Shown piece after piece: positions 5,066 through 21,788 of a stretch of 30,524 nucleotides of DNA. The position numbers and the translations under genes are program-made. Positions within the stretch are counted from its first letter, which is position 1; each line of letters opens with the position of its first letter. Origin of the DNA: Candidatus Bathyarchaeota archaeon. GTDB lineage: Archaea > Thermoproteota > Bathyarchaeia > TCS64. The notes below the pieces were generated by a model. That model did not search any database and had not been told where the DNA came from. It saw only the letters and a list, made by a program, of their open reading frames with translations. The stretch is taken from assembly GCA_963771885.1 (NCBI GenBank), contig CAVYVF010000003.1:1-30524 (forward strand), read 5' to 3'.

Positions 5066-6679
5066 TTAGGGAATATTTTGATAGAGTACTTTTCCTCCAA
5101 CAATCGTCATCAGGTTCTTAACCTCCTTCAACTGCTCCCTTGGGATCCTCAATGGGTCCCTGTCGACGACGCATATGTCGGCGAGTTTCCCCGCCTCGAT
5201 GCTTCCCTTGATACCCTCCTCCCAGGAAGCATAGGCTCCATCGATCGAGTATGCTCTAATAGCCTCTAAGGGGGTGATCGCCTCCCTCGAGTAGAGGATC
5301 TGGCCGCTGCTCGTCTTCCTCGTGACTAGGCTGTAGATTCCGAGCCAGGGATTCGGGTCACATATGCTTGCATCGCTGTGTCCCGGGGCCGGTATGCCTT
5401 GATCAATCAGGCTTCTGTGAGGCCACATGTACCGCATCTCATCCTTTCCCCGGTTTTTCAGGTAAGCGTCACCTAGGTCATGGAGGAAACCAGATGCTGA
5501 AGCGTCTATTACCCCTAGTTCCTTCAGCCTCTTCTGAATAGGCGGGGTAACCGCGCAGCAGTGCTCTATCCTGTGGCGGTGATCAGGCCTCGGCTCCTCC
5601 CTCAGCGCGGCCTCAATCGCGTCGAGGGCTCTGTCTATCCCGCGGTCGCCAACCCCGTCTAACCCCACTCGTATCCCCGCCCCGTGCGCCTTCCTGACCC
5701 TCTCCGTGATGTCCTCCTGATCGTACAGGAGTATGCCCGTGTTGTTCGGCTCGCCGACGTAGGGCTTGTAGTAGGCGGCCGTCCTACCGCTTGTGCTGGT
5801 GTCGAAGACCCACTCAGCCGCCGTGACTTTGAGCCACTCGTCCCCGAAGGGCGTCTGGAGACCCATCGCGACAGCGCCCTCAACCATCCCGACGTCTCTT
5901 CCGCTGATGTGGACCGCGGTCCTGACCGGTAGCTTTCCCTCCCTCTTGAGCCTCTGCATCGCCTTGAACTCGTTTGGTGAAACCATGCTGGCGTGTATGC
6001 TTGTTAATCCGAGCTTGAGGCACTCCTGGTATACAATCTGCAGGCCTCGGTAGAACTCGTCCTCAGTGTAGGGGGGTATCTTGTGGTAGACGAGGTCCTT
6101 GGCTGACTCCCTGAGCAGGCCGGTGAGCTCTCCCTTCTCATCGTGCTCGATCTTGCCGTGGTGGGGGTCAGCCGTTTCCCTCGTGATCCCGGCTATGTTT
6201 AGCGCGTGAGTGTTTGCGACTCCGTTATGGCCGTCCCTCCTCTGAATGTATAGCGGGTTATCTGGCGCGGCCTCGTCCAGCTCCTTCAGGGTTGGGTACC
6301 TGCCCATCTTCACATCATCGAGTCTATAGCCGAGGATCCAGTTCCCCGCCGGAGTCTCAGAGGCTTTTCGCCTCACCGCGCCTAGCATCTCCTCGACGCT
6401 CGTAAACATGGGGCCGCAGGCTACTCCTCTAATGAGGTATGCCCCCCAGCTTCCCCCGGGGTGCATGTGGCTGTCGATGAGCCCAGGCAGAACCGTCAGG
6501 CCACCTAGCTCGATTACCTTGGTTCTGGGCCCAATGAATCTCTTTACTTGATTATTCGTTCCAACTTTCAGGATTTTGCCATCTCTTATCGCCACCGCCT
6601 TCGCAATCCGGTTTTGGCCATCCAGAGTGATTACCTTACCACTGAGGAGAGCGATGTCAGCCTGGTTTTCGCCCAACAA
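5066..6679 (-). CDS. Amidohydrolase 3 family, YtcJ-like metal-dependent hydrolase
   Basis: PGLIDSHMH, RDGH, RHRIEHC, HSD, KGSIEAGKLAD. Confidence 0.93.
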   Translation of the reverse strand: MLGENQADIALLSGKVITLDGQNRIAKAVAIRDGKILKVGTNNQVKRFIGPRTKVIELGGLTVLPGLIDSHMHPGGSWGAYLIRGVACGPMFTSVEEMLGAVRRKASETPAGNWILGYRLDDVKMGRYPTLKELDEAAPDNPLYIQRRDGHNGVANTHALNIAGITRETADPHHGKIEHDEKGELTGLLRESAKDLVYHKIPPYTEDEFYRGLQIVYQECLKLGLTSIHASMVSPNEFKAMQRLKREGKLPVRTAVHISGRDVGMVEGAVAMGLQTPFGDEWLKVTAAEWVFDTSTSGRTAAYYKPYVGEPNNTGILLYDQEDITERVRKAHGAGIRVGLDGVGDRGIDRALDAIEAALREEPRPDHRHRIEHCCAVTPPIQKRLKELGVIDASASGFLHDLGDAYLKNRGKDEMRYMWPHRSLIDQGIPAPGHSDASICDPNPWLGIYSLVTRKTSSGQILYSREAITPLEAIRAYSIDGAYASWEEGIKGSIEAGKLADICVVDRDPLRIPREQLKEVKNLMTIVGGKVLYQNIP

Positions 6680-6818
6680 TCTTAGTCAGAGGTCCCTGAA
6701 GCGCATCAATATTTAACAACATTCACTATTAACGCGTGCGCGGAGACACACAGAGTAGGAAATGGATTCAGTAATGAACTTTAAAAAAATACCGAAATAA
6801 TGGTCGTTGCGCCACTAT

Positions 6819-6854
6819 GTTTACATTTTAATACAAATGTATACTATTGTATTC
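6819..6854. promoter_or_regulatory. Operator array of four GTATAC-like hexamers at exact 10-bp period
   Basis: GTTTAC(6819)-attt-TAATAC(6829)-aaat-GTATAC(6839)-tatt-GTATTC(6849), in the divergent spacer upstream of the RHH gene. Confidence 0.7.
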
Positions 6855-6923
6855 TCTAAACTTGACTCTGTTAATAAAGAGTGAGATTAAATATTCGCTT
6901 ATTCATAAATATTATCGATTATC

Positions 6924-7446
6924 TTGACCAAAAAAACGAGTCAGTCAGTAGTTCGAACTCTGAGACTCGACCGGGATCTAAATGATTACCTGGTTCAGGA
7001 GGCCAAGAAGTCAAACATATCCATCTCTGCCCTAGCGTCGGAGATTTTCACATCCTACAGGGATAAGTACCGCTTTGTAGAGAAAATGAATCCTGTCGCT
7101 ATCACGCCGGGAAATCTAGCCCTATTCTTAGAATGCATAAGAGACGAGGACCTGCAACAAATAGCTCCCAAATTAGCTTCGAAGCTGTGCCTCTATCACC
7201 AAGCATGTCTTCGATCCTGGAAATTTCAAGACGGATCTCGACTGGTGCCTTACCAACCTTCTCCCCACATGCCACTGGTTTACATGTAACAGATCGGCTG
7301 AGAGTTACATGATAACCCACAATATGGGTCCAAAGTGGACGACATTCCTTACAAAGTTCCTTTCAAGCCTTATATCCGCGGAAACTGGGAAAACTCCCAT
7401 CGTCGAAGTGGACAATGAGATCATCCTCGTAAAGAAGTGGAACTAG
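6924..7446 (+). CDS. Ribbon-helix-helix regulator with C-terminal NitrOD5/V4R-like domain, paralog 1 (frameshift near 7190)
   Basis: VVRTLRLDRDLNDYLVQEAKKSNISISALASEIF is RHH-like. The shifted frame continues ...DWCLTNLLPTCHWFTCN..YMITHNMGPKWTTFLTKFLSSLISAETGK..* and aligns with 9033..9590. Confidence 0.75.
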
Positions 7447-7489
7447 CGGTTCCCCAACCGTCTGAGCTCATATCCCTATGAAATTATTC

Positions 7490-7505
7490 GTATACATTTG
7501 TAAAC
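7490..7505. promoter_or_regulatory. Operator GTATAC-ATTT-GTAAAC upstream of the microprotein/patB unit
   Basis: The reverse complement of 7489..7507 matches 12309..12327 at 18/19. TATA-like TTTTATAA at about 7527. Confidence 0.7.
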
Positions 7506-7577
7506 ATCCATGATTTATGTTGGAAATTTTATAAAATAACCTGGAAGCCCCGGTGTAACTGATAGTAGGTGATGTTG

Positions 7578-7733
7578 ATGCAAGTGATTGAGGAGGCTAA
7601 AAGGAATTCTTCGGGCACATATCCCCCACCCTTCAGATGTGAGTCGTACTGGATCAAGGCGTGCAACGTAAAGGACGCATCGCTTTGCCTGGAGTGCAGG
7701 GAGAACCTCTACCTCGAGCGAGCCAAGAGCTAG
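7578..7733 (+). CDS. Cys4 microprotein (51 aa), paralog 1, unannotated
   Basis: AGGTGA SD at 7567. MQVIEEAKRNSSGTYPPPFRCESYWIKACNVKDASLCLECRENLYLERAKS*, with the same C-x7-C-x7-C-x2-C motif as 19342..19479. Confidence 0.85.
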   Translation: MQVIEEAKRNSSGTYPPPFRCESYWIKACNVKDASLCLECRENLYLERAKS

Positions 7734-7780
7734 ATAGCCTCTTATCCCGAGAAACTACTTCAAACCGAGTTGAACCTAAG

Positions 7781-8955
7781 ATGATCTATGACTTTGATAC
7801 AGTGATCGATAGAACAAAGTCCAGCTCCGTAAAGTGGAGCTTTAGGAAGGAGAGAACCGGGGTTCCGGACATCCTCCCAATGTGGATAGCCGACATGGAC
7901 TTCGTATGCGCCCCGGAGATCGTTGATGCGCTGAAGGAGCGCGTCGCATTCCCTATCTACGGGTACACGGAGAGGACACCCGGTTATTATAACGGCCTCA
8001 TCAACTGGATGAGTAGGCGACACGGCTGGAACGGAATAAAGAAGGAGTGGATCCTGTTCACGCCCGGCGTCGTCGCGGGATTCAACTTCGCGGTCCAAGC
8101 CTACTCTCATCCCGGGGACAAGATAATCATACAGCCCCCCTGCTACTACCCCTTCTTTGACGCCATCGTCAACAACGGCCGAAGGATAGTCGAAAACCCC
8201 CTCAAGGTCGTAGATGGCGGCTACGTGATGGACTATGAGGACCTTGAGAGCAAGATCGATGGCAGAACGAGGATGATAATACTCTGCAGCCCACATAACC
8301 CGGTTGGCCGCGTCTGGAAAAGAGGGGAGCTTGAGAAACTCGTCGAAGTTTGCGAGAGGAAAGACATCGTCATACTCTCCGATGAGATCCATAACGATCT
8401 GATCATAGGCGACATGAAGCACGTACCGACCGCGACGATCTCCGAAGAGGCTATGAGGAGGACGGTCACGCTCGTGGCGACGAGTAAAACCTTCAACTTG
8501 CAGGCCTCACAAACTCTAACGTAGTAATACCCGACAAGAGGCTGAGAGAAGAGTTCCAGAACGTTGTAGAGAATAACCGCACCAAGAACACGAACATCTT
8601 CGGCATAGTTGCGCAGGAGGCTGCGTATGCGAATGGCGAGCCATGGCTTGAGGCACTCCTAACATATCTAAGGGGGAATTATCAGTACCTTAAGGAGTAC
8701 CTGGCAACGAAGTTGCCCCAACTGAAATTATACCCTCTTGAGGGAACTTATCTCCCCTGGATCGACTGTAGCGCTCTCGGCATGAACGACAAGGAGCTGA
8801 GCGAGTTCATGCTCAAGAAAGCAAAATTGTGGCTGGATGATGGAATACTGTTTGGGTACGGCGGCTCGATGTTCATGAGGCTTAACATTGCGTGTCCCAA
8901 GAGCATTCTACGAGAAGCGCTAGAGAGACTTGAGAAAGCGATAAGTGACTCCTAG
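7781..8955 (+). CDS. patB: MalY/PatB family PLP-dependent C-S lyase (frameshift near 8500)
   Basis: MIYDFDTVIDR, SVKW, PMWIADMDF, LCSPHNPVGRVW, SDEIHND, SKTFNL(AG), EGTYLPWIDC, FMRLNIACP. Confidence 0.92.
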
Positions 8956-9020
8956 AATCCCTGCCTGAGAAGAAGGATGGCTATAACGCCCGATAATTGG
9001 GAGTAACCTGCTTGAACTCC

Positions 9021-9027
9021 TTTTTTT
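9021..9027 (+). terminator. Oligo-T archaeal terminator candidate after patB
   Basis: T7 tract in the convergent spacer. Confidence 0.4.
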
Positions 9028-9032
9028 AGTGA

Positions 9033-9590
9033 CTAAGCCTTAGTGACAACATTACCTGGGCTGTCACCGATTTTTAGGGTTAATTTCTCTGCGTCTGATT
9101 CGATGAAGGCTGGTTGCCCGGTTTCGATTATGATCAGAGACGATATGAAACCTGTCAGGAATCTGCTCCATTTGTCGCCGAGTTCGTGTGTTAGGACATA
9201 GATATTGTTTGAAGCTTGGCATCGGAACCAGCCGGAGGTAGGTAATACTTCTGTTAGGCAGTAGCGTATCGAGTCCTCGGCTTTACGGTTGTTGAAGACA
9301 TATTGGGCATATTTGTGGAACCTCGAGGCTTCCTTGGCTCCAATCTCCCCCAGTTCGGCCTCTGTCAGAAATTCTAGTAAGGAGGATAACGCGTCTTTGT
9401 ACATGGCAACGGGCTTAACGGATTCGTACCTGCTGACGACATCTCTATATGAGTCTAGGATATTGATGGCGTAATCCTGTGTTGATAAATTGGCTTTTTT
9501 TGCTTCATTATTTAGGTGTGCATCTAATCCTTTCTCTAGTCTAATTGCTTTGACCAGCGTGTCTCTATTTCTTTTATCCGACGTGTTCAA
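9033..9590 (-). CDS. Ribbon-helix-helix regulator with NitrOD5/V4R-like domain, paralog 2
   Basis: TLVKAIRLEKGLDAHLNNEAKKANLS; THELGDKWSRFLTGFISSLIIIETG; colinear with 6924..7446. Confidence 0.8.
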   Translation of the reverse strand: MNTSDKRNRDTLVKAIRLEKGLDAHLNNEAKKANLSTQDYAINILDSYRDVVSRYESVKPVAMYKDALSSLLEFLTEAELGEIGAKEASRFHKYAQYVFNNRKAEDSIRYCLTEVLPTSGWFRCQASNNIYVLTHELGDKWSRFLTGFISSLIIIETGQPAFIESDAEKLTLKIGDSPGNVVTKA

Positions 9591-9754
9591 CTAAGGCTCT
9601 ATTGTCAATTACTATTACTTAATTTTTATGATCAGAGATGTGCGCACGGAAGGTATACTTCTTTATAGAAACATGATTCTATACTGGTGGATGTGTATCC
9701 TAAAACTCACTAGAATACGCGCATGGTGCTAGCACGTCTAAACCTTGCATTTAA

Positions 9755-10438
9755 TTATTCTAAATCACCAATCATCTTTCTAAAATAAAAAGCCTCTTTT
9801 TCAGATATGTTTAAAATAGATTTTTCATACTGTTCTTTTAAAATTACTATTTTTAATTTTTCAAAAGATCCATCAAGATCATCAAAACCCCATCCTTTAT
9901 TTATATAATATGTTTTATCATATGAGCGATCATCTCTCATTATTATACATTTATCATATTCATCTTTTAACTTACAATAATTAAATAAAACACTTTGTAA
10001 GAATGAATTTGCATGCGCACGCGAATTAAATAAAATATTTATATCCAAGGGATTTTCTATCCATAATTTACTATGTATTTTTTCTATTTGATTTAGAATA
10101 GATTTAATGGTATTATTATCACTTTCATTGATTTCTTTATTTTTAATTAATAATTTTTCTAGATTCTTATTATCAATACTGACTAAATTTACTTTAACAT
10201 ATCCTTTTTCAGGCTTTTTAGTTTTTTCCTCTGTCTTATTCTTTCTAATTTTTACTGCTTTTCTTGTTTTTTCTGAATTTTTTTCATCGTATGGAACATT
10301 CGCAACTTCACATATTTCTTTTTTATTCTTAAAATGCTCATATATTTCTCTGTTATTTATTTTGCAATTATTAGATATCCTTTTTACAGATGGTGTTTTA
10401 TTATTTTCACTATAATACATCTTAAACAGAATCGACAA
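9755..10438 (-). CDS. Very AT-rich orphan protein with a possible N-terminal HTH
   Basis: Intact 227-aa ORF in extremely AT-rich DNA. KTPSVKRISNNCKINNREIYEHFKNKKEICEVANVP resembles a TetR-like HTH or homing-endonuclease-associated repeat. Confidence 0.6.
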   Translation of the reverse strand: MSILFKMYYSENNKTPSVKRISNNCKINNREIYEHFKNKKEICEVANVPYDEKNSEKTRKAVKIRKNKTEEKTKKPEKGYVKVNLVSIDNKNLEKLLIKNKEINESDNNTIKSILNQIEKIHSKLWIENPLDINILFNSRAHANSFLQSVLFNYCKLKDEYDKCIIMRDDRSYDKTYYINKGWGFDDLDGSFEKLKIVILKEQYEKSILNISEKEAFYFRKMIGDLE

Positions 10439-10536
10439 TTTTTCTCTTTATTATCTGATTAGACATAGAGATTACCCAAATATCTATTCTTTAAGATATA
10501 AATCTTTCCAAAAATATTACTATATTCATTAAAAAA

Positions 10537-10615
10537 CATTTCAAATCATTTCAGCGATAAAAAGACATCATTTCAGCCATTTCAAAGCTCATTTCGATTC
10601 ATTTCAGTCATTTCT
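10537..10615. repeat. Helically phased array of seven CATTTC(A) boxes
   Basis: Copies start at 10537, 10547, 10569, 10578, 10590, 10600 and 10609. Confidence 0.85.
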
Positions 10616-10902
10616 AGCTATGATCCGAAAGCTAGTACTCTACTTTCTAGAAATTCTTAAACCTAATATGTGTATGTGAGTCCTGTAATTCGCGTGCGAT
10701 AGGTTAGAACAATGCAGGCGTAGTGCGAATGTAATCGTAGTAGAAGCCCGTCGTGCGCTGCACGCAGCCGACTTCCATAGAAACAACGCCGAAAACATCG
10801 CGCGTTCGATAAAGTGACTCGTAGAAGCCCGGTAGTCGATCAGTTCGCGCTCGGTGGAGTTTTTAAGACTCCCATTCACTAACGAGGTAGCCGTGATGAT
10901 TC

Positions 10903-11878
10903 GTGATACTAAACCAATGGTACTCCATTCTTGAATCCTCAGAGGTCGGGACGAAGCCAGTGGGAGTAACGAGGATGGGGGAGAAACTCGTACTCTGGCG
11001 CTCAAAGGGCACCATTGGTTGCTTAAAAGACAGGTGCATCCATAGAGGAGCCGCCCTCAGTGGCGGCAAGACCATTGACAGCGACTTACAATGCCCATTC
11101 CATGGCTTGAGGTATGATTCAACGGGCAAGGTAACGATGATTCCAGCCAACGGAAAGTCGAAACCTGTTCCCAACTACTTCAAAGCTGACAGCTACTTAG
11201 TGCGCGAGGAGCACGGGTTTATTTGGATTTGGTGGGGCTGCGCCAAGAGAAGAGTATCCGCCGATTCCATGGTTCGACGACATCGGCGAAGGCTTCAGCT
11301 TTAGCACGGTGAAGCAGCGATGGACCACCCACTACAGCCGAGCCATCGAGAACCAGTTGGACGTCGCGCACCTGCCATTCGTCCACTCTAACTCAATTGG
11401 CAGAGGGAACAGAACGCTTGTCAACGGACCCTACACAACATTCGACAACGGGGCAATCACAGTATACCCCGATAATGAGGTGGATGAAGATCAGACGCCG
11501 AAAAAGCCTATAGAGATGTCTTCTCCCCCCGGGCGTTACTATATACAGTTCAAGTTCCCGAACGTTTGGCAGAACAGGATCAGTGATGGCAATAGAGTCG
11601 TCGTATCATTCAGCCCTATAGATGGTGAAAATACGATGATGTACCTCAGGTCGTATTGGAAGACGAAGGGCGTTCCCGGGTTAAACTGGTTGACTGGAAT
11701 ATTTTCGGGAATAGGCTCTTGGTATATCGCCGACCAGGATAGGAGAGTGGTTGTCAGTCAGACCCCTAAGAGGGTGGGGGTAGATATCGGTGAGAAACTG
11801 ATTTCGGCTGATCTCCCTATTGCCATCTATCGGCAGGAAAGTGACCGTTTGATCAGGAAAGCTGTTAACGGCTCTTAG
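10903..11878 (+). CDS. Rieske non-heme iron oxygenase alpha subunit, VanA/KshA-like (frameshift near 11240)
   Basis: Rieske motifs DRCIHRGA and QCPFHG; mononuclear-Fe motif ENQLDVAHLPFVH and a downstream DQD. Confidence 0.9.
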
Positions 11879-11991
11879 GCTGAGTAACGCACGTATTCCT
11901 TCATTATTCAAGACATCCTCAGACGCATTCTAGTACCAAATATTGGACTATCTCATTAAGAGAAAAAAGGAGTGTAATAGTCTTGGGATGG

Positions 11992-12249
11992 TTATCCGTA
12001 GAATTTGAACTCGATATGCCACAGATACTCTGGTCGCTTCGTCTCCATAAAGGGCTTCATGGTATCATTCATGTGTTCTGCCTCGACCATAATCATGTAG
12101 TGGTACCTGTCACAGGCGGCTCCGTACTGGCCTACGAACTTTACCTTGGCCTTTTCGCAGGCTTTCTTCAGAGTCTCGGCGTATTCCTTTATTCTGGTTT
12201 CGCGTTGAGAGGACGTTCCATCCAGGTCGATGAGATACATCGCTAACAT
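11992..12249 (-). CDS. Small ferredoxin-like fold protein (GYD/DUF3303-like)
   Basis: MLAMYLIDL...KAKVKFVGQYGAACDRYHYMIMVEAE shows the dimeric alpha/beta-barrel pattern; ATG at 12249. Confidence 0.6.
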   Translation of the reverse strand: MLAMYLIDLDGTSSQRETRIKEYAETLKKACEKAKVKFVGQYGAACDRYHYMIMVEAEHMNDTMKPFMETKRPEYLWHIEFKFYG

Positions 12250-12310
12250 CTTCGTCACCAAGCGCTCGGGCGCGCTACCAATTTTCGTTAATTGATCCTA
12301 TAGCGTGTAT

Positions 12311-12326
12311 GTTTACAATTGTATAC
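12311..12326. promoter_or_regulatory. Operator GTTTAC-AATT-GTATAC
   Basis: Near-identical inverted copy of 7490..7505, in a divergent spacer. Confidence 0.7.
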
Positions 12327-12440
12327 GGGGATTGCCTTCGTTCCGATTATCGGTGGCACGAAGGACACTGATGCCCAAGTATGGGGCTTTGGAATAGTTT
12401 TAATCCGCATCGATACAAAGTCGCATCTGAGGCACTGGAA

Positions 12441-13640
12441 ATGCGCCGAACACAACGGATAGCGTCCGCCCTGCTGTTCCTCATGCTAGTCGCTGCGTTG
12501 CCTCCCGTCGCTGCGGAGGAATACTACCCTACATCGGGTTGGCGCACCTCTCCCCCAGAGGCGCAGGGCATGTCCTCGGAGAAGCTGAGGGAGTGGAGCG
12601 ACGAGATACGGGTAAGCGGCACGGCCATAGACGGCATCGTGGTGGTGCGTCACGGATACCTAGTCTGGGAAACCTATCCCAACCCGCTCTTCGGCGCCAC
12701 TGACACCCACCGCCTATACTCCGTCACGAAGAGCTTCACATCCTGCCTCGTCGGCATAGCCATCGATAAGGGCTACATCGACGGCGTCAATCAGACAATG
12801 CTCTCCTTCTTCCCCGAAAGGACGATAGCCAACCTCGACGAGCGCAAGCAACGGATCACCGTCGAGAACCTGCTCATGATGCGCAGCGGGCTACGGTGGG
12901 ACGAGTCGAGCGCCCCATTCACCGACCCCCGAAACGACATCTACCACAAATACTCTACGGGGACGGTCTCCAGTGGAGCCTCGACCTCGAGGCGGTCGGC
13001 GAGCCCGGCGTCACGTGGCACTACAACACTGGGGCAAGCCACATACTCAGCGGCATAGTCACCGCCGCCACTGGCTCATCGACGCTCGACTTCGCCGAGG
13101 AGAACCTCTTCAAGCCACTGGGCATAACCCGCTACGCCTGGTCGGAGGACGGCGCGGGCACGATCATAGGCGGATTCGACCTCCAGCTAAGCCCCCGCGA
13201 CATGGCCAAGTTCGGCTACCTCTACCTACACGGCGGCAGCTGGGACGGGAAACAGATAGTCTCCGAGGGGTGGGTGGAGAGGTCAACGAGCACCCTAACA
13301 AGGCCCACCGCGGCCCTCGGCTATGGCTTACCAGTGGTGGACGACGCCCAGCCAGAACATGTACTCCTGCCGCGGCCTCTACAACCAGATGATATACGTC
13401 CTCCCCGGGCAGGACATCGTCGTCGCTGTGACGGGTGACATGAGGAGCGGGGGCACAGACGACGCGATAGCCGACTACATACTTGCGTCGATAACAGAGT
13501 ATGACCCAGGCACAGAGCCGGCTGGGCAGAGTAATGGTGTACCCGGGTACCCGGTTGAGGCCTTCGCCGCTGGTTTGATCATGGTCATCTTGATCGGCGT
13601 ACAGGCGCGCACGGTTAGACCTAAGCTTCATAACTTGTAA
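12441..13640 (+). CDS. Secreted serine hydrolase (beta-lactamase/AmpC-like family) with a C-terminal PGF-like sorting signal (2 frameshifts)
   Basis: Signal peptide MRRTQRIASALLFLMLVAALPPVAA, SxxK (SVTKS), YxN-like HYNT, C-terminal GVPGYPVEAFAAGLIMVILIG followed by a basic tail. Confidence 0.85.
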
Positions 13641-13764
13641 CCGCTCTCGCTCGCGGAGGCTATACTCTTGAGATTCTCCAATGGCTAACGAAAACCTACG
13701 GGAAATATCTCTAGGCACATATTATTCATTCAATAATTGTATGCGCGCTTAGATAGATTGAAAA

Positions 13765-15208
13765 TTAACAAATTTCCCAAGAATTTTTTATTGGCCAAAG
13801 AGCAAGATGTTCAATGAAGATATTTCCTCGATTACAAAAAAGTTCAATCCCTGAATCCTCTTTACCTGGGAAAACCTGCATGGTCATTACCGCTTTTCCC
13901 CTGTTAGCAAAAACCTCCACGATACTATTATCAACAAATATCCTCAAATTCAAACTATCATTGTCCAGAACAAGGTTTGTTTCGCAACTTCCAAGTTTTT
14001 CATATATTTGATTAAATGAATTATTTCTCGTTTTACTTCTATCTAAACAAAGAGCATGAGACTCATTATCATAACATAACTCCATTTCATGGCCAGCACC
14101 CGAAAAAAACCGTATCCCAAAATTGGATTTATGCGAAGGTTTGGCAGAGATCTGCAGTTCAAACTGAGTTGAATTAACGGGCAACCTCATAGTTTTTTCA
14201 AGAATGAAACAATTCACCTCTAATAATGAAGCAGACCGAAGTATGCTCAACTGATGTAATGGGTTCTTGTAGCAATAACCACTCATCATTAACTTTTTTC
14301 AAGCGCAACATTCTTGGTAAGGACATAGCTCCTCTCCAAGGCATAGTCGGAATGTCTTGAGCATACTTCCAATTATTAGCCCAGCCAATACTAATCGGCA
14401 ATTCTCCCCTTGGACGATTTTTATAAACAATAGCCGCGTAGTAATCAGAACCATAATCAGGTCTGAATATTTTCGTGCTAGGGTTTTCATTTTTAAAATA
14501 TGACCCGTCAAAATCACCTACAAAATATTGCATATACGGGGAAGGCGAATGCATCAACACCCATTTTGTTTTTCCAGATTCATCATCAATAGGAACCTCA
14601 AATAGATCAGGGCACTCCCAAATTCCAGAGGTATCTCCTGCAGGACCGAAGCTGCTTAATAATTTCCATTCTTTCAAATTTTGGGAACTAAAAAATTGAA
14701 CCTTTTTTTCGACTGCAAGAACGATAGACATTATCCACTTCTTATGTGGTTCATACCAGAACACTTGCGGATCACGAAAATCCTTTATATCTAGATCCAA
14801 CACTGGATTCTTTTCATATTTTTTCCATGTTCTTCCTTTATCATTGCTGTAAGCGAGACACTGCGATTGATTCTTCCCTTTGATGTATCCGGTATAGATG
14901 GCAACCATAGGGACATTACCGGGTCTTTCTGCAAAGCCGGCTGTGTTAGTCTTATCAATTACACAGCTACCAGAAAAAATCATTACATCACCTTCTTCTG
15001 GAATTGCTAATGGAAAATGCTGCCAATGGATAAGGTCCCGGCTGATTGCATGGCCCCAACTCATATGTCCCCAACGGATGCCCACGGGATTGTGTTGATA
15101 GAATAGATGGTATTCACCGTCGTAAGATACGAGTCCGTTGGGGTCATTAATCCAATTTAATGGAGCGGAAAAGTGGTACTGTGGACGAAAATGTTCTCGA
15201 TATAACAT
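13765..15208 (-). CDS. Glycoside hydrolase family 32 (levanase/beta-fructofuranosidase; frameshift near 14250)
   Basis: RPQYHFS, WINDPNG, FSGS, FRDP, WECPDLF, C-terminal LRIFVDNSIVEVFAN. AGGAGG SD precedes the ATG at 15208. Confidence 0.95.
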
Positions 15209-15512
15209 ATTATTTGAACCTCCTATCATTGTAACCTCTCTATTTGATGACCTTATTTGGATCCGGTAAGAGTAGGGATAAGACCTTCGTCCGCGCGCGC
15301 ATTCCCTGAGAAGCGGCGCGCGTGTTAACATCCTTGCTGAGAGGGAAAATAAGCAACTAGGAGAGCGTGGAAGATGGGTATAGAGGAGCTAGCTCAGAAA
15401 GTATCCAAATTCAGTGTCATGTGCGAAATATTTCCTCCTCCACATAATGACGAGTCACTCTTGCCCTCCCGTAACTACCGTTAAATTACCAGAACCGTTC
15501 CTAGAACACGCT

Positions 15513-16232
15513 ATGTCCCTGACTGAGAAGGAGATCATCCAGAAGCTTGAGAAGATCGACACCCCCACCATCAGCAACGTGGTGGCCACGTACCCGAAGG
15601 CGGACAGCTGCATGAAGCTCTACGACGCGTGGTACGGGGAGTGGTACACCGACCAGACCATCAAGTGTATTTACCCCGAGATGGGCCCCAAGGTCGGCTA
15701 CGTCTCCACGGTTGTGTTCTGCGAAAAGTCTGAGAAATACACGGGCTTCAGCAGGTGGGCTCTGCCCGAGCACATTGAGAGGACACCGAAGCCGACGATC
15801 CTTGTCGCTGAGCAGCAGTTCCCACCCGAGATAGCGAACAGGGTAGGCCTCTTCGGCGAGATAATGACAACTCAGTACAAGGCACTGGGAGTGATCGGCG
15901 TCATCACGAACGGGCCGATGAGGGACATCGACGCCATCAAGCCTCTGGACTTCCAATACTATGCCACGGGCGTCACCCCGGGGCACGGCGACTTCATGGT
16001 GAAGGCGGTTGACGTCCCAGTGAAGGTGGGGGGCATGTCCGTGATGCCGGGAGACATGGTTCACATGGACATGCACGGCGCGGTCAAGTTCCCCGCCTCG
16101 AAGATGGGCGAGGTCCTGGAGCGCGCTACCAAGCTGCTTGAAAACGAGTCATCCCTGACTAGAATCTATAAGGAGCCCGAGTTCACCCTTAAGAAGTGGA
16201 AGCAGAGCGTGGAAGGCACCAAGACGTATTGA
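15513..16232 (+). CDS. RraA/HMG-aldolase family protein
   Basis: DTPTISN, GLFGEIMT..YKALGVIGVITNGPMRDIDAI, VMPGDMVHMDMHGAVKFP. Confidence 0.88.
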   Translation: MSLTEKEIIQKLEKIDTPTISNVVATYPKADSCMKLYDAWYGEWYTDQTIKCIYPEMGPKVGYVSTVVFCEKSEKYTGFSRWALPEHIERTPKPTILVAEQQFPPEIANRVGLFGEIMTTQYKALGVIGVITNGPMRDIDAIKPLDFQYYATGVTPGHGDFMVKAVDVPVKVGGMSVMPGDMVHMDMHGAVKFPASKMGEVLERATKLLENESSLTRIYKEPEFTLKKWKQSVEGTKTY

Positions 16233-17228
16233 ATGGAGTTGAATGATGTGAAGGTACTATTCGTAGCAGGCAGATGGGCGCAGGACGTCGACAAGTCAGA
16301 GAGGCTCAAAGAGCTCAAGAAGCACGCCGAGGTAGAGCTAGCCCTCCAAGGCGACGAGAAGTCCCTCATCGAGAAGGTGGGCGACGTCGAGGTGATCATC
16401 ACGGGCGGGCCGATAACCGCCGCGGTCATCAACGCAGCCCCCAAACTGAAGATGATACAGACGACCAGCGTCGGTTTCGACTACATCGACGAGGCGGCCG
16501 CGGCCAAGAAGGGCGTCATCATCTGCAACGTGGCCGGCGTCAACGCAAACAGCGTCGTCGAGCTTGACTTCGGAATGATCCTCGACATAGCGCGCAGGAT
16601 AGGAGCCCACAACCGCTCCATGAGGGAGGGTGGATGGGCCAGGGTCGAGGTTGAGAGGCAGGTCGAGATCCGGGGCAGCACAATAGGGATCGTTGGCCTC
16701 GGAGCGATAGGCAGCAGGATGGCGCAGTTTGCGACTCACGCCTTCAACATGAAGGTGCTCGCATACGACCCCTACATCACGGAGGCGAGGGCTCAGCAGT
16801 TCAACGCCGAGCTCGTTGACATCGAGACGCTCTTCAAGACTTCAGACATCGTGACAATCCACGTTCCACTTAACGAGGAGACACGCCACATGATCGGGGA
16901 AAGGCTGCTGAGAATGCTGAAACCCACAGCAATCTTCGTTAGCAGCGCCAGGGGCCCGATCGTCGACGAGGAGGCGCTGATAAAGGTCCTTAAGGAGAGG
17001 AGGATAAGCGGCGCATGCCTCGACGTCTACGAGACCGAGCCCTTACCCAAAGACAGCCCTCTGAGGACACTCGACAACATCTCGATTGTCCCCCACATCG
17101 GGAGCACACCCGGGATAATGGTCGTGATGAGGGAGACGGCGGTCTGGAACGTCATCCGCGTAGCAAAGGGAGAAACCCCCCTAAACGTTCAGACCCCCAA
17201 GGTCTACTACACCAGCCCGAAGTGGTAG
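16233..17228 (+). CDS. D-2-hydroxyacid dehydrogenase (SerA/glyoxylate reductase-like, NAD-type)
   Basis: GLGAIG, AYDPY, SARG, LDVYETEP, PHIG; abuts the RraA-family gene. Confidence 0.93.
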   Translation: MELNDVKVLFVAGRWAQDVDKSERLKELKKHAEVELALQGDEKSLIEKVGDVEVIITGGPITAAVINAAPKLKMIQTTSVGFDYIDEAAAAKKGVIICNVAGVNANSVVELDFGMILDIARRIGAHNRSMREGGWARVEVERQVEIRGSTIGIVGLGAIGSRMAQFATHAFNMKVLAYDPYITEARAQQFNAELVDIETLFKTSDIVTIHVPLNEETRHMIGERLLRMLKPTAIFVSSARGPIVDEEALIKVLKERRISGACLDVYETEPLPKDSPLRTLDNISIVPHIGSTPGIMVVMRETAVWNVIRVAKGETPLNVQTPKVYYTSPKW

Positions 17229-17363
17229 AATATCATACTCACCACAATTTTGCGCTTGAGCAAGACGATTTATGGTTATTATGAAATAGAGTTAATCAGT
17301 ATAAATAGCATAATAATTTAAAGGCGTGAACATACATGGATAACGAAGACTGAAGGCTTAGAA

Positions 17364-17936
17364 ATGAGTAAAACAAGCCCCTACGAAGTACAGGTACAGA
17401 ACGTCGTCGCCTCGGCCTCCCTCGACCAGAAGATAGACCTACTCGCCATCATGAAGGTGTTTAAGAACGTCGAGTACCGCCCAAAACAATTCCCAGGCCT
17501 AGTGTTCCGACTGAAGAAGCCTAAGACAGCGACCCTCATCTTCGGAAGCGGCAAGATGGTCTGCACGGGGGCGAAGTCCGAGAAGTTGGCGAAAAGCGCC
17601 GTGATACGGGTCGTCAAGGAGTTAAAGACGAATGGGATCATCATCCTCGGGAAACCGAAGATAGTCATACAGAATATGGTCTCCTCCGCAAACCTCCACG
17701 GCAAGATTGACCTAGAGACCGCCTCGGACGTCATGGATAACGTCATGTATGAGCCTGAGCAGTTCCCCGGTTTGATTTACCGGATGCCAGATCCCAAGGT
17801 GGTTATGCTCCTATTCGCTTCGGGGAAGATCGTTATTACCGGTGCAAAGACTGAGGAGCAGGTCCATGAGGCCGCGAAGAAAATCAATTCACTGCTCCTC
17901 GAATATGACCTCCTTTACCAGGGAGACGATCCTTAA
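17364..17936 (+). CDS. tbp: TATA-box-binding protein
   Basis: Two repeats QNVVAS..YRPKQFPGLVFR..LIFGSGKMVCTGAKS and QNMVSS..YEPEQFPGLIYR..LLFASGKIVITGAK. Confidence 0.98.
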   Translation: MSKTSPYEVQVQNVVASASLDQKIDLLAIMKVFKNVEYRPKQFPGLVFRLKKPKTATLIFGSGKMVCTGAKSEKLAKSAVIRVVKELKTNGIIILGKPKIVIQNMVSSANLHGKIDLETASDVMDNVMYEPEQFPGLIYRMPDPKVVMLLFASGKIVITGAKTEEQVHEAAKKINSLLLEYDLLYQGDDP

Positions 17937-18110
17937 CACAGCGCGCATAGGGCTTCACGATCTATTCTCCGAGGAAGCTCACAGCTTATGCGCGCGCGTA
18001 GCTGAAAGTGGTAAACTAAGCCACATAAATATCAAATAAAAAAGTCAATAACCAATGCTTCTAACGCTGAAGGAGACATAAAACAAGTAAAGTCTACAGC
18101 GCATGCATCA

Positions 18111-19121
18111 TTAATTCACAACTCGCAGAGGCGGTTTCCCCTCGCAGACTCTGTAAAGATTCTCAAAAACAAGCGGAGGTACCCGCTTCATTATCTCTGG
18201 CGAAAGAGCACTGCTATGGGGAGTTAAGAGAACATTCTTAGCTCCCAATAATGGGCAGCCCTCTATTTTTGGCTCGTTGACGAATACATCAACGGCTGCG
18301 CCCCTTAAGTGACCAGTTTTCAGAGCCTCAGCCAGTGCATCGACGTCGACTACCTCCCCTCTTGCGGTGTTGATGAGCACACTTCCTCTCTTCATCATGC
18401 GAATTTCTTTTTCCCCGATCATCCCCCGGGTCTGCTTTGTTAATGGTACATTGATACTCAGGACATCGGAGGTTCTGATAATTTCCTCGAATGATTTGTA
18501 GGTGATTGTCAACTCCTTCTCCACTTCTGGTGACAGTCTATTACGATTATTATACTGAATTTGTGTTCCGAACTCCTTTGCGAGCCTAGCGATCTCTCTC
18601 CCTATACTACCGCAGCCGATTATCCCTAGTGTAAGTGATCCGAATTCAAGCGGCATCCTTTCAGGGGCAATTAATTGTTGCTGCACCCAATTTCCTTTCC
18701 GAGTCTCTGTGTTTGCATACTCTATTGACTTTATCAGAAACAGAGCGGCCATAATCGTGTATTCGGCCATTGGTCTAGCAGTAATCCCAGCTGAATTGGC
18801 AACTGGTATCCCCCTCTCTTTAGCTGCTACAAGATCGACATCATCGAAGCCAATTGTATAACATTGAATAAGTTTGAGTTTTTTACCGCTCTCAATAACA
18901 CGCCTAGTCACTGGTGTGAAGTGCAGGGAGTCAGTAAGTAGGAAATCAGCATCTTTCACCAGTTCACAAACTCTATCCTCCGACGCCTTAGGCCCTGCCC
19001 TGATCAGCTCGAAGGTGTTTTTATCGACGAGTTTTCCGAAGAAATTATTAAATGCTTCATCCGGGAATGAGCAAATATCCAAGATTTTGAATTTAACCAT
19101 ACGACACATTCCCCAACTCAT
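18111..19121 (-). CDS. D-2-hydroxyacid dehydrogenase (glyoxylate/hydroxypyruvate reductase-like)
   Basis: GCGSIG, YNNRNR, INTARG, DVFVNEP, TPHS. Confidence 0.92.
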   Translation of the reverse strand: MSWGMCRMVKFKILDICSFPDEAFNNFFGKLVDKNTFELIRAGPKASEDRVCELVKDADFLLTDSLHFTPVTRRVIESGKKLKLIQCYTIGFDDVDLVAAKERGIPVANSAGITARPMAEYTIMAALFLIKSIEYANTETRKGNWVQQQLIAPERMPLEFGSLTLGIIGCGSIGREIARLAKEFGTQIQYNNRNRLSPEVEKELTITYKSFEEIIRTSDVLSINVPLTKQTRGMIGEKEIRMMKRGSVLINTARGEVVDVDALAEALKTGHLRGAAVDVFVNEPKIEGCPLLGAKNVLLTPHSSALSPEIMKRVPPLVFENLYRVCEGKPPLRVVN

Positions 19122-19199
19122 TTTTTTGAGATCCTAGTAACACGAACTAACCTAGAAACCTCAGAAAGCTGAGAAGCGATGATAATATTAATAGTGTTT

Positions 19200-19280
19200 G
19201 TATACAAATGTAATACTTCTTTTAATATGCGCTTTTCACGGGCCGAGAATAAGGTATTCTCCCGTACTACAATTGTATAC
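19200..19280. promoter_or_regulatory. Two inverted TACAWWTGTATAC operators in a divergent promoter
   Basis: GTATACAAATGTA at 19200..19212 and TACAATTGTATAC at 19268..19280, each a few bp upstream of a TATA-like AT box (about 19182-19193 leftward, 19286-19293 rightward). Confidence 0.7.
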
Positions 19281-19341
19281 ATACATTATAAATAAATTTT
19301 CAACTTAATCTCTCAATACCTCTTGAATTGGGGTGAATACA

Positions 19342-19479
19342 ATGTACAAAAATGTCAAAGATGTGATGACTCAGAGGTGTGAGTCGTTCTACATTGGTAG
19401 TTGTAAGATCCAAGATGGGAAAACTTGTTCTGAGTGCAGAAATTACATAGTAAACTCTCAATTTAGAAAGGTTTCTTGA
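19342..19479 (+). CDS. Cys4 microprotein (45 aa), paralog 2, unannotated
   Basis: GGGGTGA SD at 19330. MYKNVKDVMTQRCESFYIGSCKIQDGKTCSECRNYIVNSQFRKVS*. Confidence 0.85.
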   Translation: MYKNVKDVMTQRCESFYIGSCKIQDGKTCSECRNYIVNSQFRKVS

Positions 19480-19504: not shown

Positions 19505-20509
19505 ATGATTCCCCCAACTAAGATAGTGTCTTTTTACTGGGGTCACACCCCTGAACATCAAAAGGCTTGGTTCAAAGACGCGATCCCAAACCTCATAGTG
19601 GACGTAGTTCCTCAAGGTTGCAGCCCCGGAAAGATATGTGAGATGATTTCTGACGCTGACCTGATTCTTCAGGTGCCTGGAACATTTATTTCCCGTGAGA
19701 TGCTTGAGGCCGCTAATAGGGCGAAGCTCGTTCAGTTCATGTCCGTTGGATACGATACTATCGATTTAGCTGCGGCTAAGGACCTCAAGATCCCCGTTGC
19801 GAATAATCCCGGTTTTCCATCGATACCTGTCGCCGAGCACACGATCATGAGCATTCTTGTTTTATTAAAACAGGCATTTTACGGCCATTCTGAACTCTTC
19901 AAAAACAACTGGGTGCAACAAGAGGTCTGCAACGGAAGAATTGGGGAGTTAACATGCAAAACCGTGGGGATTCTCGGATTGGGGCATATCGGCCTTGAGG
20001 TTGCTAAGAGAATCCGACCCTTTGGCTCTAAAATCATCTATAACAAGCGTAACAGGTTGACCAGAGAAACTGAGGAGCAACTTGGCGTAGAGTATGTCAC
20101 GTTTGATGACTTGGTCACAAGGTCAGATATCTTGACCATACACGCTCCACTTACCCCTGAAACGAAAAACATGATCAGCCGCGAACAGATCGCTAGAATG
20201 AAGCAGGGCTCGTACCTCATCAATACCGCCCGCGGGCCTATCGTCGATGAGATTGCCGTCGCCGATGCACTAAGGGAGGGGAAGTTGGCTGGAGCAGCCT
20301 TCGATGTTCCGCGTTATGGTGCGGGAGATGTGCCAAAGACTATCGAGAACTTCAAGGGCTGTAAAAACGTGTTAATCACGCCACATACCTCATCCTCATC
20401 GCCCGAGTCGGAGGAACGCTTTGTACAGGGATTCACGGCGAACGTCGTAAAGACGTTGAATGGTGGAAACCCTGACTTTGTAGTGAATGGGATTTTGAAG
20501 CCGAGATGA
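19505..20509 (+). CDS. D-2-hydroxyacid dehydrogenase family protein
   Basis: GLGHIG, YNKRNR, INTARG, TPHT; atypical DVPRYG where DVFxxEP is usual. Confidence 0.9.
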   Translation: MIPPTKIVSFYWGHTPEHQKAWFKDAIPNLIVDVVPQGCSPGKICEMISDADLILQVPGTFISREMLEAANRAKLVQFMSVGYDTIDLAAAKDLKIPVANNPGFPSIPVAEHTIMSILVLLKQAFYGHSELFKNNWVQQEVCNGRIGELTCKTVGILGLGHIGLEVAKRIRPFGSKIIYNKRNRLTRETEEQLGVEYVTFDDLVTRSDILTIHAPLTPETKNMISREQIARMKQGSYLINTARGPIVDEIAVADALREGKLAGAAFDVPRYGAGDVPKTIENFKGCKNVLITPHTSSSSPESEERFVQGFTANVVKTLNGGNPDFVVNGILKPR

Positions 20510-20576: not shown

Positions 20577-21788
20577 TTGAGCAAGGTGTCAAAGACGGCG
20601 CTTCTCCTTCTCGCTACTATTTGTGTCACATATTTTGTCGAAAATTTCTTTAGAACCGCGGCCTCGGCTCTCACACCGATTCTAATCGAGGAACTATCAA
20701 TCTCGAGGGCCTCTATGGGGTTGTTGATCACCGCTTTTTTCCTGATATATGGCTTCATGCAGTTCCCCGCTGGTCTACTTACCGAGATTTTGGGACCGAA
20801 AAAATCGATTGTCCTCTTCACTGCCTTGACTATTGTGGGTGGCGTGTTATTCTGGGCGAGCTACAGCTACGAGCTTCTCTTCGCGGCGCAGTTCATAATG
20901 GGGATCGGCACGAGCGTCTTCTACCTCAACGCGATAACCTTGCTGTCTAGATGGATTCCCTCTAGTAGACGTGCGACAGCCATCGGAATATTGAGTGCGA
21001 GTAGTGGGATGGGTGCGTTTACGTGCTTCATAGGGTTTCCGCTAGCTATCACGATATGGGGCACGTGGAGAAACCTCTACCTCGTTATGCTTGGGGCTCT
21101 CCTAGTAAATTGGGTCTTCAACTATTTTCTGATTAAGGATAATCCATCCAACACTACATCAGTGATTGGGAGACGTGAGGGCCTATTTCTCTCCTTGAAG
21201 AGGACGTTGGGTGAAAAGGCCCTACACCCTCTTTTCTTCGGTTACGCAATGATGGGTCTTAATTATCTCCTAATTCAATGGGCGAATCAATATCTAATCG
21301 AATCCAAGAGCCTCACTTACGTAGAGGCTGGCCTGGTGACTAGCGTTGGTACTGTGTCTGGGTTTATTGGCTGTATTGCCATGGGGGTGTTTAGCGACAA
21401 GATAAAGAAGCGCAAACTGCCGATCATCGCGTCTCTTACCCTTTACACGGTCTTTTTGGGATGCTTTATTTTCCTGCCTTCTGGATTGCCGGTTGCTTTC
21501 TACGCGTTGAACTGGTTTCTCTTGACCTTTTTCCTTAGTTTCTGGGTGCTCTTTCCCAGTATGGTTGGTGAGGTCGTATCGCGGGCTAAGGCTACGATTG
21601 GTTTCGGGGTTATGAATGGGTTGATGATGATCATCACGAGTTTAGCTACTCCCCTCTATGGTGCCTTGGTTGACTTGACGGGTAGTTTTTTCATTCCGAC
21701 GTTGATCAGTCTAGGTCTAAGTGTTTTTGCCTTGATTATTCTTAATAGGTCTCTATCGGAGACTTACGGGCTTGCTCCCGGCGATTGA
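20577..21788 (+). CDS. Major facilitator superfamily transporter
   Basis: About 12 hydrophobic segments; QFPAGLLTEILGPKK and GVFSDKIKKRK loop motifs; T8 tract after the stop. Confidence 0.92.
   Translation: MSKVSKTALLLLATICVTYFVENFFRTAASALTPILIEELSISRASMGLLITAFFLIYGFMQFPAGLLTEILGPKKSIVLFTALTIVGGVLFWASYSYELLFAAQFIMGIGTSVFYLNAITLLSRWIPSSRRATAIGILSASSGMGAFTCFIGFPLAITIWGTWRNLYLVMLGALLVNWVFNYFLIKDNPSNTTSVIGRREGLFLSLKRTLGEKALHPLFFGYAMMGLNYLLIQWANQYLIESKSLTYVEAGLVTSVGTVSGFIGCIAMGVFSDKIKKRKLPIIASLTLYTVFLGCFIFLPSGLPVAFYALNWFLLTFFLSFWVLFPSMVGEVVSRAKATIGFGVMNGLMMIITSLATPLYGALVDLTGSFFIPTLISLGLSVFALIILNRSLSETYGLAPGD

Follow-up and report, generated by a model that had tools for sequence, protein, structure and literature searches.

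A 30,524-nucleotide stretch of contig CAVYVF010000003.1 from a Candidatus Bathyarchaeota archaeon (GenBank assembly GCA_963771885.1), called the window here, carries two genes for small proteins with four cysteines (Cys4 microproteins), each placed just ahead of a gene for a metabolic enzyme. Both are genuine genes, not chance open reading frames (ORFs), and comparison of their sequences indicates that the Cys4 microproteins are a real, conserved family that is absent from the catalogues searched. We tentatively favor the view that the Cys4 microprotein, probably a zinc protein, is a local trans-acting regulator or co-regulator of its operon, by analogy with the archaeal microprotein Brz.

Two Cys4 microgenes precede enzyme genes

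An earlier note, made from the DNA alone, had pointed to two ORFs of 51 and 45 amino acids (aa) with the same C-x7-C-x7-C-x2-C spacing, each with a TATA-like box, a GGTGA Shine-Dalgarno sequence 5 nucleotides (nt) before the ATG, and enzyme genes behind it. These claims were borne out: the translations agree, the Cys spacing is identical in the two proteins, and the promoter-like boxes, Shine-Dalgarno motifs and enzyme genes are all present. The two units comprise the following features.

7490 to 7505, plus strand: perfect 16-bp operator with two TGTWWACA-type boxes (site scan)
7527 to 7536, plus strand: TATA-like box, presumed from its sequence to be functional
7568 to 7572, plus strand: Shine-Dalgarno-like GGTGA
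7578 to 7733, plus strand: Cys4 microprotein of subfamily B, 51 aa (ORF; hidden Markov model [HMM] of the family)
7781 to 8955, plus strand: PatB family C-S lyase with a frameshift near 8500 (TIGR04350, E = 5.6e-94 for the 247-aa part before the frameshift)
18111 to 19121, minus strand: 2-hydroxyacid dehydrogenase (domain match), transcribed away from the second microprotein operon
19200 to 19215, plus strand: operator with two mismatches (site scan)
19268 to 19280, minus strand: partial operator in reverse orientation, beside a TATA-like box (site scan)
19286 to 19293, plus strand: TATA-like box, likewise presumed to be functional
19332 to 19336, plus strand: Shine-Dalgarno-like GGTGA
19342 to 19479, plus strand: Cys4 microprotein of subfamily A, 45 aa (ORF; family HMM)
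19505 to 20509, plus strand: 2-hydroxyacid dehydrogenase (PF02826, E = 7.8e-51)
20577 to 21788, plus strand: MFS transporter (PF07690, E = 1e-44)

Both genes had been described as missed by the ORF track. The 51-aa protein is already called in NCBI/ENA, without a name; the exact sequence of the 45-aa protein is absent there. Across all six reading frames of the 2.46-Mb genome, only the two ORFs match [RK]C[EDQ]S[YF][WYF], and the bare Cys spacing gives nine matches, seven of them unrelated to the microproteins. The family HMM, which includes both window proteins, scores them in the genome at E = 8.6e-21 and 6.1e-19, and the next best match has an E value of 0.17. Three proteins encoded in G000 (C23:722087, 38961 and 746781) have a fuller multi-Cys pattern with the same spacing and are unrelated to the family in sequence. 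In one RNA library, contigs of a close relative cover positions 7273 to 7653 and 7676 to 7826, with 7654 to 7675 and 6700 to 7272 uncovered. As these contigs also span the operator and promoter, we did not take them as a sign of microgene transcription.

The microproteins form a conserved, genus-restricted family

Thirty sequences were gathered, of which 28 are distinct. All 28 have the exact C-x7-C-x7-C-x2-C spacing with four invariant Cys and no additional Cys; the search pattern used for the metagenome and for one further scan required the first two. A Glu after the first Cys and an Arg or Lys after the last are also invariant, within a 21-residue core that reads C-E-[SL]-[YF]-[YW]-I-[GK]-x-C-x-[VI]-x-D-x3-C-x-E-C-[RK], and every distinct member has a net charge of +1 to +5. 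The proteins are 38 to 60 aa long (38 to 81 aa as called). In-frame insertions and deletions occur only at the termini, and the C-terminal tails vary in length and sequence, that of locus L003 even tolerating a frameshift.

A lack of homologs with conserved Cys and open frames in related genomes would have refuted the earlier note; such homologs were found, over a narrow range. Of the 17 other genomes in the genus, three contain homologs. The remaining 61 genomes of the order contain none (4 of 79 order genomes being positive overall), and neither does a 400-genome sample across the phylum; among the genomes examined, the family is confined to one Bathyarchaeia genus. Three of the four genomes that bear it carry two paralogs. 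Protein searches yielded three matches with one query and then 9 and 13 with profiles; one of the first three, a 979-aa repeat protein (P0003), was rejected as spurious. A metagenome scan gave 19 pattern matches that reduced to 11 loci. Weak genome matches inspected at six loci lacked the motif and were rejected, and neither of two pattern matches in viral contigs was confirmed as a family member.

Purifying selection, also expected of a real family, was evident at the 17 loci compared (L031, L039 and L040 were left out as duplicates). Over a 26-codon core, the ratio of nonsynonymous to synonymous differences (pN/pS) was 0.17 in subfamily A and 0.26 in subfamily C, the pairs compared not being independent. 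Pooled pS and pN were 0.68 and 0.12 for the six sequences of subfamily A, where third positions account for 164 of 268 pairwise differences, and 0.45 and 0.12 for the five of subfamily C. The three sequences of subfamily B show 10 pairwise differences, too few for a test, with a ratio of 0.42. The gene frame is free of stops at all 17 loci; the other five frames contain stops at 16, 17, 10, 17 and 17 of them.

The family matches none of the Cys-rich families compared

The Cys pattern had not been recognized as a named family, and database searches agree: in Pfam, NCBIfam, PHROGs and PDB sequences nothing matched significantly. Sixteen members gave one unrelated Pfam match (E = 0.084), 24 gave scattered single-member matches in PHROGs (E = 0.017 or worse), and PDB sequences gave one match (E = 3.6). 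The best NCBIfam match was the anti-sigma-F factor Fin (NF053765; E = 0.013), a weak likeness of the CxxC-helix end in two of 16 members, neither of them from the window. It scored 15.9 and 14.4 bits against a cut-off of 95, a literature search on Fin returned nothing relevant, and archaea are not known to have sigma factors. The ESM Atlas yielded only unnamed clusters under 0.9. Two AlphaFold2 models (pLDDT 60.9 and 57.8) agree only in a C-terminal helix that starts just before the CxxC pair. Structure searches with these models, whose confidence is too low to bear on the fold, returned generic helix-loop-helix chains (VIA-align, best Z = 4.5) and a single Foldseek row (E = 6.9).

The opening of the family, C-x2-aromatic-x2-G-x-C, is similar to the first half of a CCCH finger, in which His is the fourth ligand. 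Identity with CCCH fingers was rejected, as the fourth ligand position is Cys in all 28 sequences, there is no His, and no Pfam match appeared for 16 members at E up to 1. Literature on the C-x7-C-x7-C-x2-C spacing led only to plant B-box microproteins of the miP1a/b type, which are also stand-alone and whose Cx2Cx7Cx7Cx2Cx4Hx8H pattern contains the same spacing (PMC4807768). Unlike them, the Cys4 family lacks the preceding Cys and the x4Hx8H pair, neither window protein having any His, so that the two-zinc B-box ligand set cannot form. The uniform absence of an extra Cys and of a Pfam B-box match excludes B-box identity.

The closest likeness is to archaeal CPxCG-related microproteins such as Brz, whose small zinc-finger gene lies directly upstream of bop and is needed for the bop mRNA level (PMC2253796). 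Shared with these proteins are the archaeal host, a length below 70 aa, four potential metal ligands, a co-directional position directly upstream of another gene and, in some cases, a larger regulator nearby (PMC2253796). The CPxCG-related definition calls for fewer than 100 residues, two Cys/His patterns (ligands 2 to 3 apart) separated by 7 to 40 residues, and at least one CPxCG, CxxCG or CPxCx. The Cys4 proteins are short enough. In contrast to Brz and its relatives, they have one CxxC only, their first two Cys being 7 apart, with Arg or Lys after the last Cys and no Pro in the listed cores or among the most frequent residues behind the third Cys, and they are genus-restricted paralogs that head unrelated operons. 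Membership was therefore rejected. Judged by sequence, the family is best filed as new, genus-restricted Cys4 microproteins outside the CPxCG and B-box families, kin in kind to archaeal one-domain metal-finger microproteins. Literature on Bathyarchaeia small proteins, zinc fingers, microproteins and ribbon-helix-helix (RHH) proteins, with few subscription papers covered, held no account of it.

The microgene usually comes first in its operon

At 16 of 17 loci the microgene is first in its operon, a small catabolic one, and preceded by an intergenic gap of at least about 130 nt or by a divergent gene, with five different gene sets behind it. It is always co-directional with the next gene and lies about 14 to 47 nt before it. 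We distinguished six groups, A to F, by microprotein sequence and next gene. In groups A and F a 2-hydroxyacid dehydrogenase follows (and an MFS gene where the contig reaches), in B PatB, in C a small unnamed protein and YdhR, and in E a different dehydrogenase, 44 to 46% identical to that of A. In group D, a pyridoxal phosphate (PLP) decarboxylase follows. Each subfamily is strictly tied to a single type of gene behind it. L002 and L007 have dehydrogenases that are 89% identical yet headed by distant microprotein paralogs, which suggests that the paralogs are interchangeable. Together with the unrelated families downstream, this case is more in line with a generic regulatory module than with a partner dedicated to one enzyme.

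The 47-nt spacer before PatB (7734 to 7780) has no clear Shine-Dalgarno sequence. Between the subfamily B loci L006 and L037 it is 96% identical, compared with 93% for the start of PatB and 87% for the micro-ORF. A frameshift fusion of the micro-ORF to PatB was rejected because in L037 and L038 a stop closes the frame in question five codons short of where the micro-ORF ends. At the subfamily C loci L003 (1418 to 1628) and L033 to L036, the 5′ arm of a conserved 16-bp imperfect stem starts about 27 nt after a TATA-like box. A closing RNA stem as a family-wide feature was rejected outside subfamily C, in stretches chosen after the data had been seen.

A tandem-box operator and RHH regulators accompany some copies

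The earlier note had placed the same GTATAC operator before both microgenes. The first does have a perfect site, larger than supposed; the window contains 12 copies of GTATAC alone, and the site at the second microgene has two mismatches. The operator, GTWTACANNTGTAWAC, spans 16 bp and is best read as 8-bp boxes with a 10-bp period. The genome contains 11 perfect sites (one of them in a duplicate segment), and its three block-shuffled versions contain 0, 1 and 0; for one-mismatch sites the count is seven versus 2, 0 and 3. Two-mismatch sites, the class to which the second microgene's site belongs, are not enriched (12 versus 19, 17 and 10). Sites in G000 lie at C1:30140, 79291 and 87728; C2:203889; C10:53654; C12:5341, 8493 and 9308; C13:475; and C23:832825. 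Most of those away from the microgenes point at the genes that dominate this regulon, which encode proteins of 85 to 110 aa (some are DUF3303, and many match nothing in Pfam) and a PLP decarboxylase.

None of the 17 other genus genomes contains the exact operator, and 2 of 53 other genomes of the taxonomic family have one copy each. A one-mismatch variant has 16 sites in G016 (control, 1) and 5 in G012 (control, 0) and none in G005, G014 or G013. G016 repeats the regulon pattern, often with two inverted sites about 30 bp apart. In G012, the end of an unrelated 53-aa ORF with a C-x10-C-x2-C-x5-C pattern (L084:1334-1495) adjoins an operator site.

Regulators encoded beside the microgenes have an N-terminal RHH domain. 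Their family profile matches NikA (E = 0.0013), CopG and omega; seven of 16 members, each from a distant clade, match PF01402 (best E = 9.7e-05), and the regulators are related to unnamed Nitrososphaerota proteins. About five lineages (L006, L037, L028, L005 and, decayed, L002/L032) have an RHH gene next to the microgene unit. Members of a close RHH clade (E < 1e-60) are confined to G000 and G016, both of which have microproteins, apart from a fragment in G014; the 14 genus genomes that lack the microprotein have none. Co-location and this partial co-occurrence suggest that RHH paralogs probably read the tandem boxes. A complex prediction for the L028 microprotein with the adjacent RHH dimer and Zn scored 0.21 against a mark of 0.32 and gave no answer either way. 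The RHH family is itself uncatalogued, joining its N-terminal domain to a C-terminal domain of about 130 aa with conserved W, H and W; in G000 and G016 it has grown to about four paralogs, and further members occur at L028, L041, L051, L055 and L058. The window contains the following related features.

5066 to 6679, minus strand: Amidohydrolase_3 gene (PF07969, E = 9.6e-101), divergent from the RHH gene across the box array
6819 to 6854, no strand assigned: operator-box array with a 10-bp period, 5′ of the RHH gene, with three overlapping two-mismatch matches (6819, 6829 and 6839)
6924 to 7446, plus strand: RHH regulator with an unnamed C-terminal domain, frameshift-split (two pieces match the RHH-family HMM)
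9033 to 9590, minus strand: second RHH-family regulator, intact, 185 aa (family HMM)
12311 to 12326, strand not stated: tandem-box operator site (site scan)

Proposed function and alternatives

We consider it almost an even call that the Cys4 microprotein acts in trans on its own operon. The four invariant Cys would bind one metal ion at a single tetrahedral site, Zn being the most likely on prior grounds, and the metal-bound protein would form a compact finger followed by the C-terminal helix. This basic protein with its aromatic pair may then regulate the operon that it heads through promoter DNA, mRNA or a transcription factor, analogously to the action of Brz on bop, and some copies may additionally be controlled by the tandem-box operator, probably read by RHH paralogs.

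Several observations weigh against this proposal. Of the C(P)XCG microproteins of H. volcanii that were purified, 14 in number, five are described as zinc-free (PMC11241148), so four Cys do not prove Zn; the invariance of the first two Cys, demanded by the search pattern, is partly circular. No DNA- or RNA-binding family was matched in the Pfam, NCBIfam, PDB or PHROGs searches, and the group D microgene takes third place in its operon, behind the genes for a small protein and YdhR. In G005 (92% complete), where two microproteins are encoded, neither an operator nor, at E = 1e-8, an RHH protein was matched; G012 contains operator sites, and neither microprotein nor RHH was matched there. These two patterns indicate that the link among microprotein, RHH protein and operator is frequent, not obligate. 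An obligate partnership is further weakened by the 17 microgene loci, of which 5 have a paired box with up to three mismatches in the scanned upstream stretch (a weaker one lies at the operon head of L005) and 12 have none; the operator is also common to many genes without a microprotein.

The earlier note had offered a co-regulator, a redox/thiol sensor or a leader peptide. A cis-acting leader, in which translation of the micro-ORF or its metal-dependent folding would control the downstream genes together with surrounding RNA structure, would account for the constant orientation and short distance to the next gene, the retention of two paralogs in three of four genomes, and the greater identity of the subfamily B spacer than of its ORF. 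In subfamily C, moreover, a stem pairs the 5′ leader with bases right after the stop at all five loci and is stronger than those of 93 to 99% of 90 background genes. However, this stem represents a single inherited case, and none of its 16 closing pairs has changed on both sides; subfamily A has it at background level, and B, D and E lack it, so that in the two window copies it is at background or missing. What is conserved is a spaced domain, including non-Cys residues and the exact spacing, not a run of Cys codons; the C-terminal tails differ, and copy D lies mid-operon. We thus regard a leader as unlikely, the subfamily C stem being its one genuine lead. A bolder version, a portable sensor cassette acting in cis, also seems improbable. 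It would be a folded, metal-binding Cys4 micro-ORF copied before unrelated catabolic operons, with some copies enclosed in a stem and a ligand geometry unlike catalogued zinc fingers, and would couple metal or thiol state to expression.

An Fe-S or mononuclear Fe protein, serving as redox/thiol sensor or as electron carrier for the co-encoded enzymes, would be in keeping with four invariant Cys that include a CxxC pair and with neighbors such as dehydrogenases and YdhR putative mono-oxygenases. Yet no Fe-S family was matched in Pfam or NCBIfam, and all members are basic, a charge that argues against an electron carrier, as small electron carriers are usually acidic; PLP enzymes need no such carrier. 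Some archaeal Cys4 microproteins do bind metals other than Zn, according to one report (PMC11241148), and we judge the Fe reading quite unlikely overall. A dedicated anti-repressor or co-repressor partner of the RHH regulators that read the tandem boxes would explain the adjacency of the two genes and the restriction of the close RHH clade to microprotein genomes, but G005 manages without either element, and at L002/L032 the microprotein is intact despite a decayed RHH gene and a lost operator, making this role improbable as well. The strict tie of each subfamily to one gene type is what an accessory subunit or modulator of the adjacent enzyme would predict. We find this very unlikely, however, because the downstream products are unrelated in fold, distant paralogs accompany dehydrogenases that are nearly identical, and no fusions were found among 7,999 longer candidates, itself weak evidence.

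Bathyarchaeia, which abound in anoxic sediments, are without a pure culture (PMC10477458), and hence almost nothing has been tested on their gene regulation. The family offers small, synthesizable proteins with an uncatalogued Cys spacing, and the accompanying operator, candidate RHH regulator and regulon lend themselves to in vitro assay. The reach is limited, as members were found in a single genus and small archaeal zinc-finger regulators are already known.

Assembly and remaining features of the window

Frameshifts split many window genes. The Rieske gene has an unbroken parallel copy on contig C4, so that the breaks are probable assembly (long-read) errors. Segments of the window have 87 to 96% identical counterparts on contigs C2, C4 and C6; the assembly is therefore probably a strain mixture. 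One further gene, for the TATA-binding protein (TBP), is located within an accessory-looking metabolic region.

17364 to 17936, strand not stated: TBP gene (PF00352)

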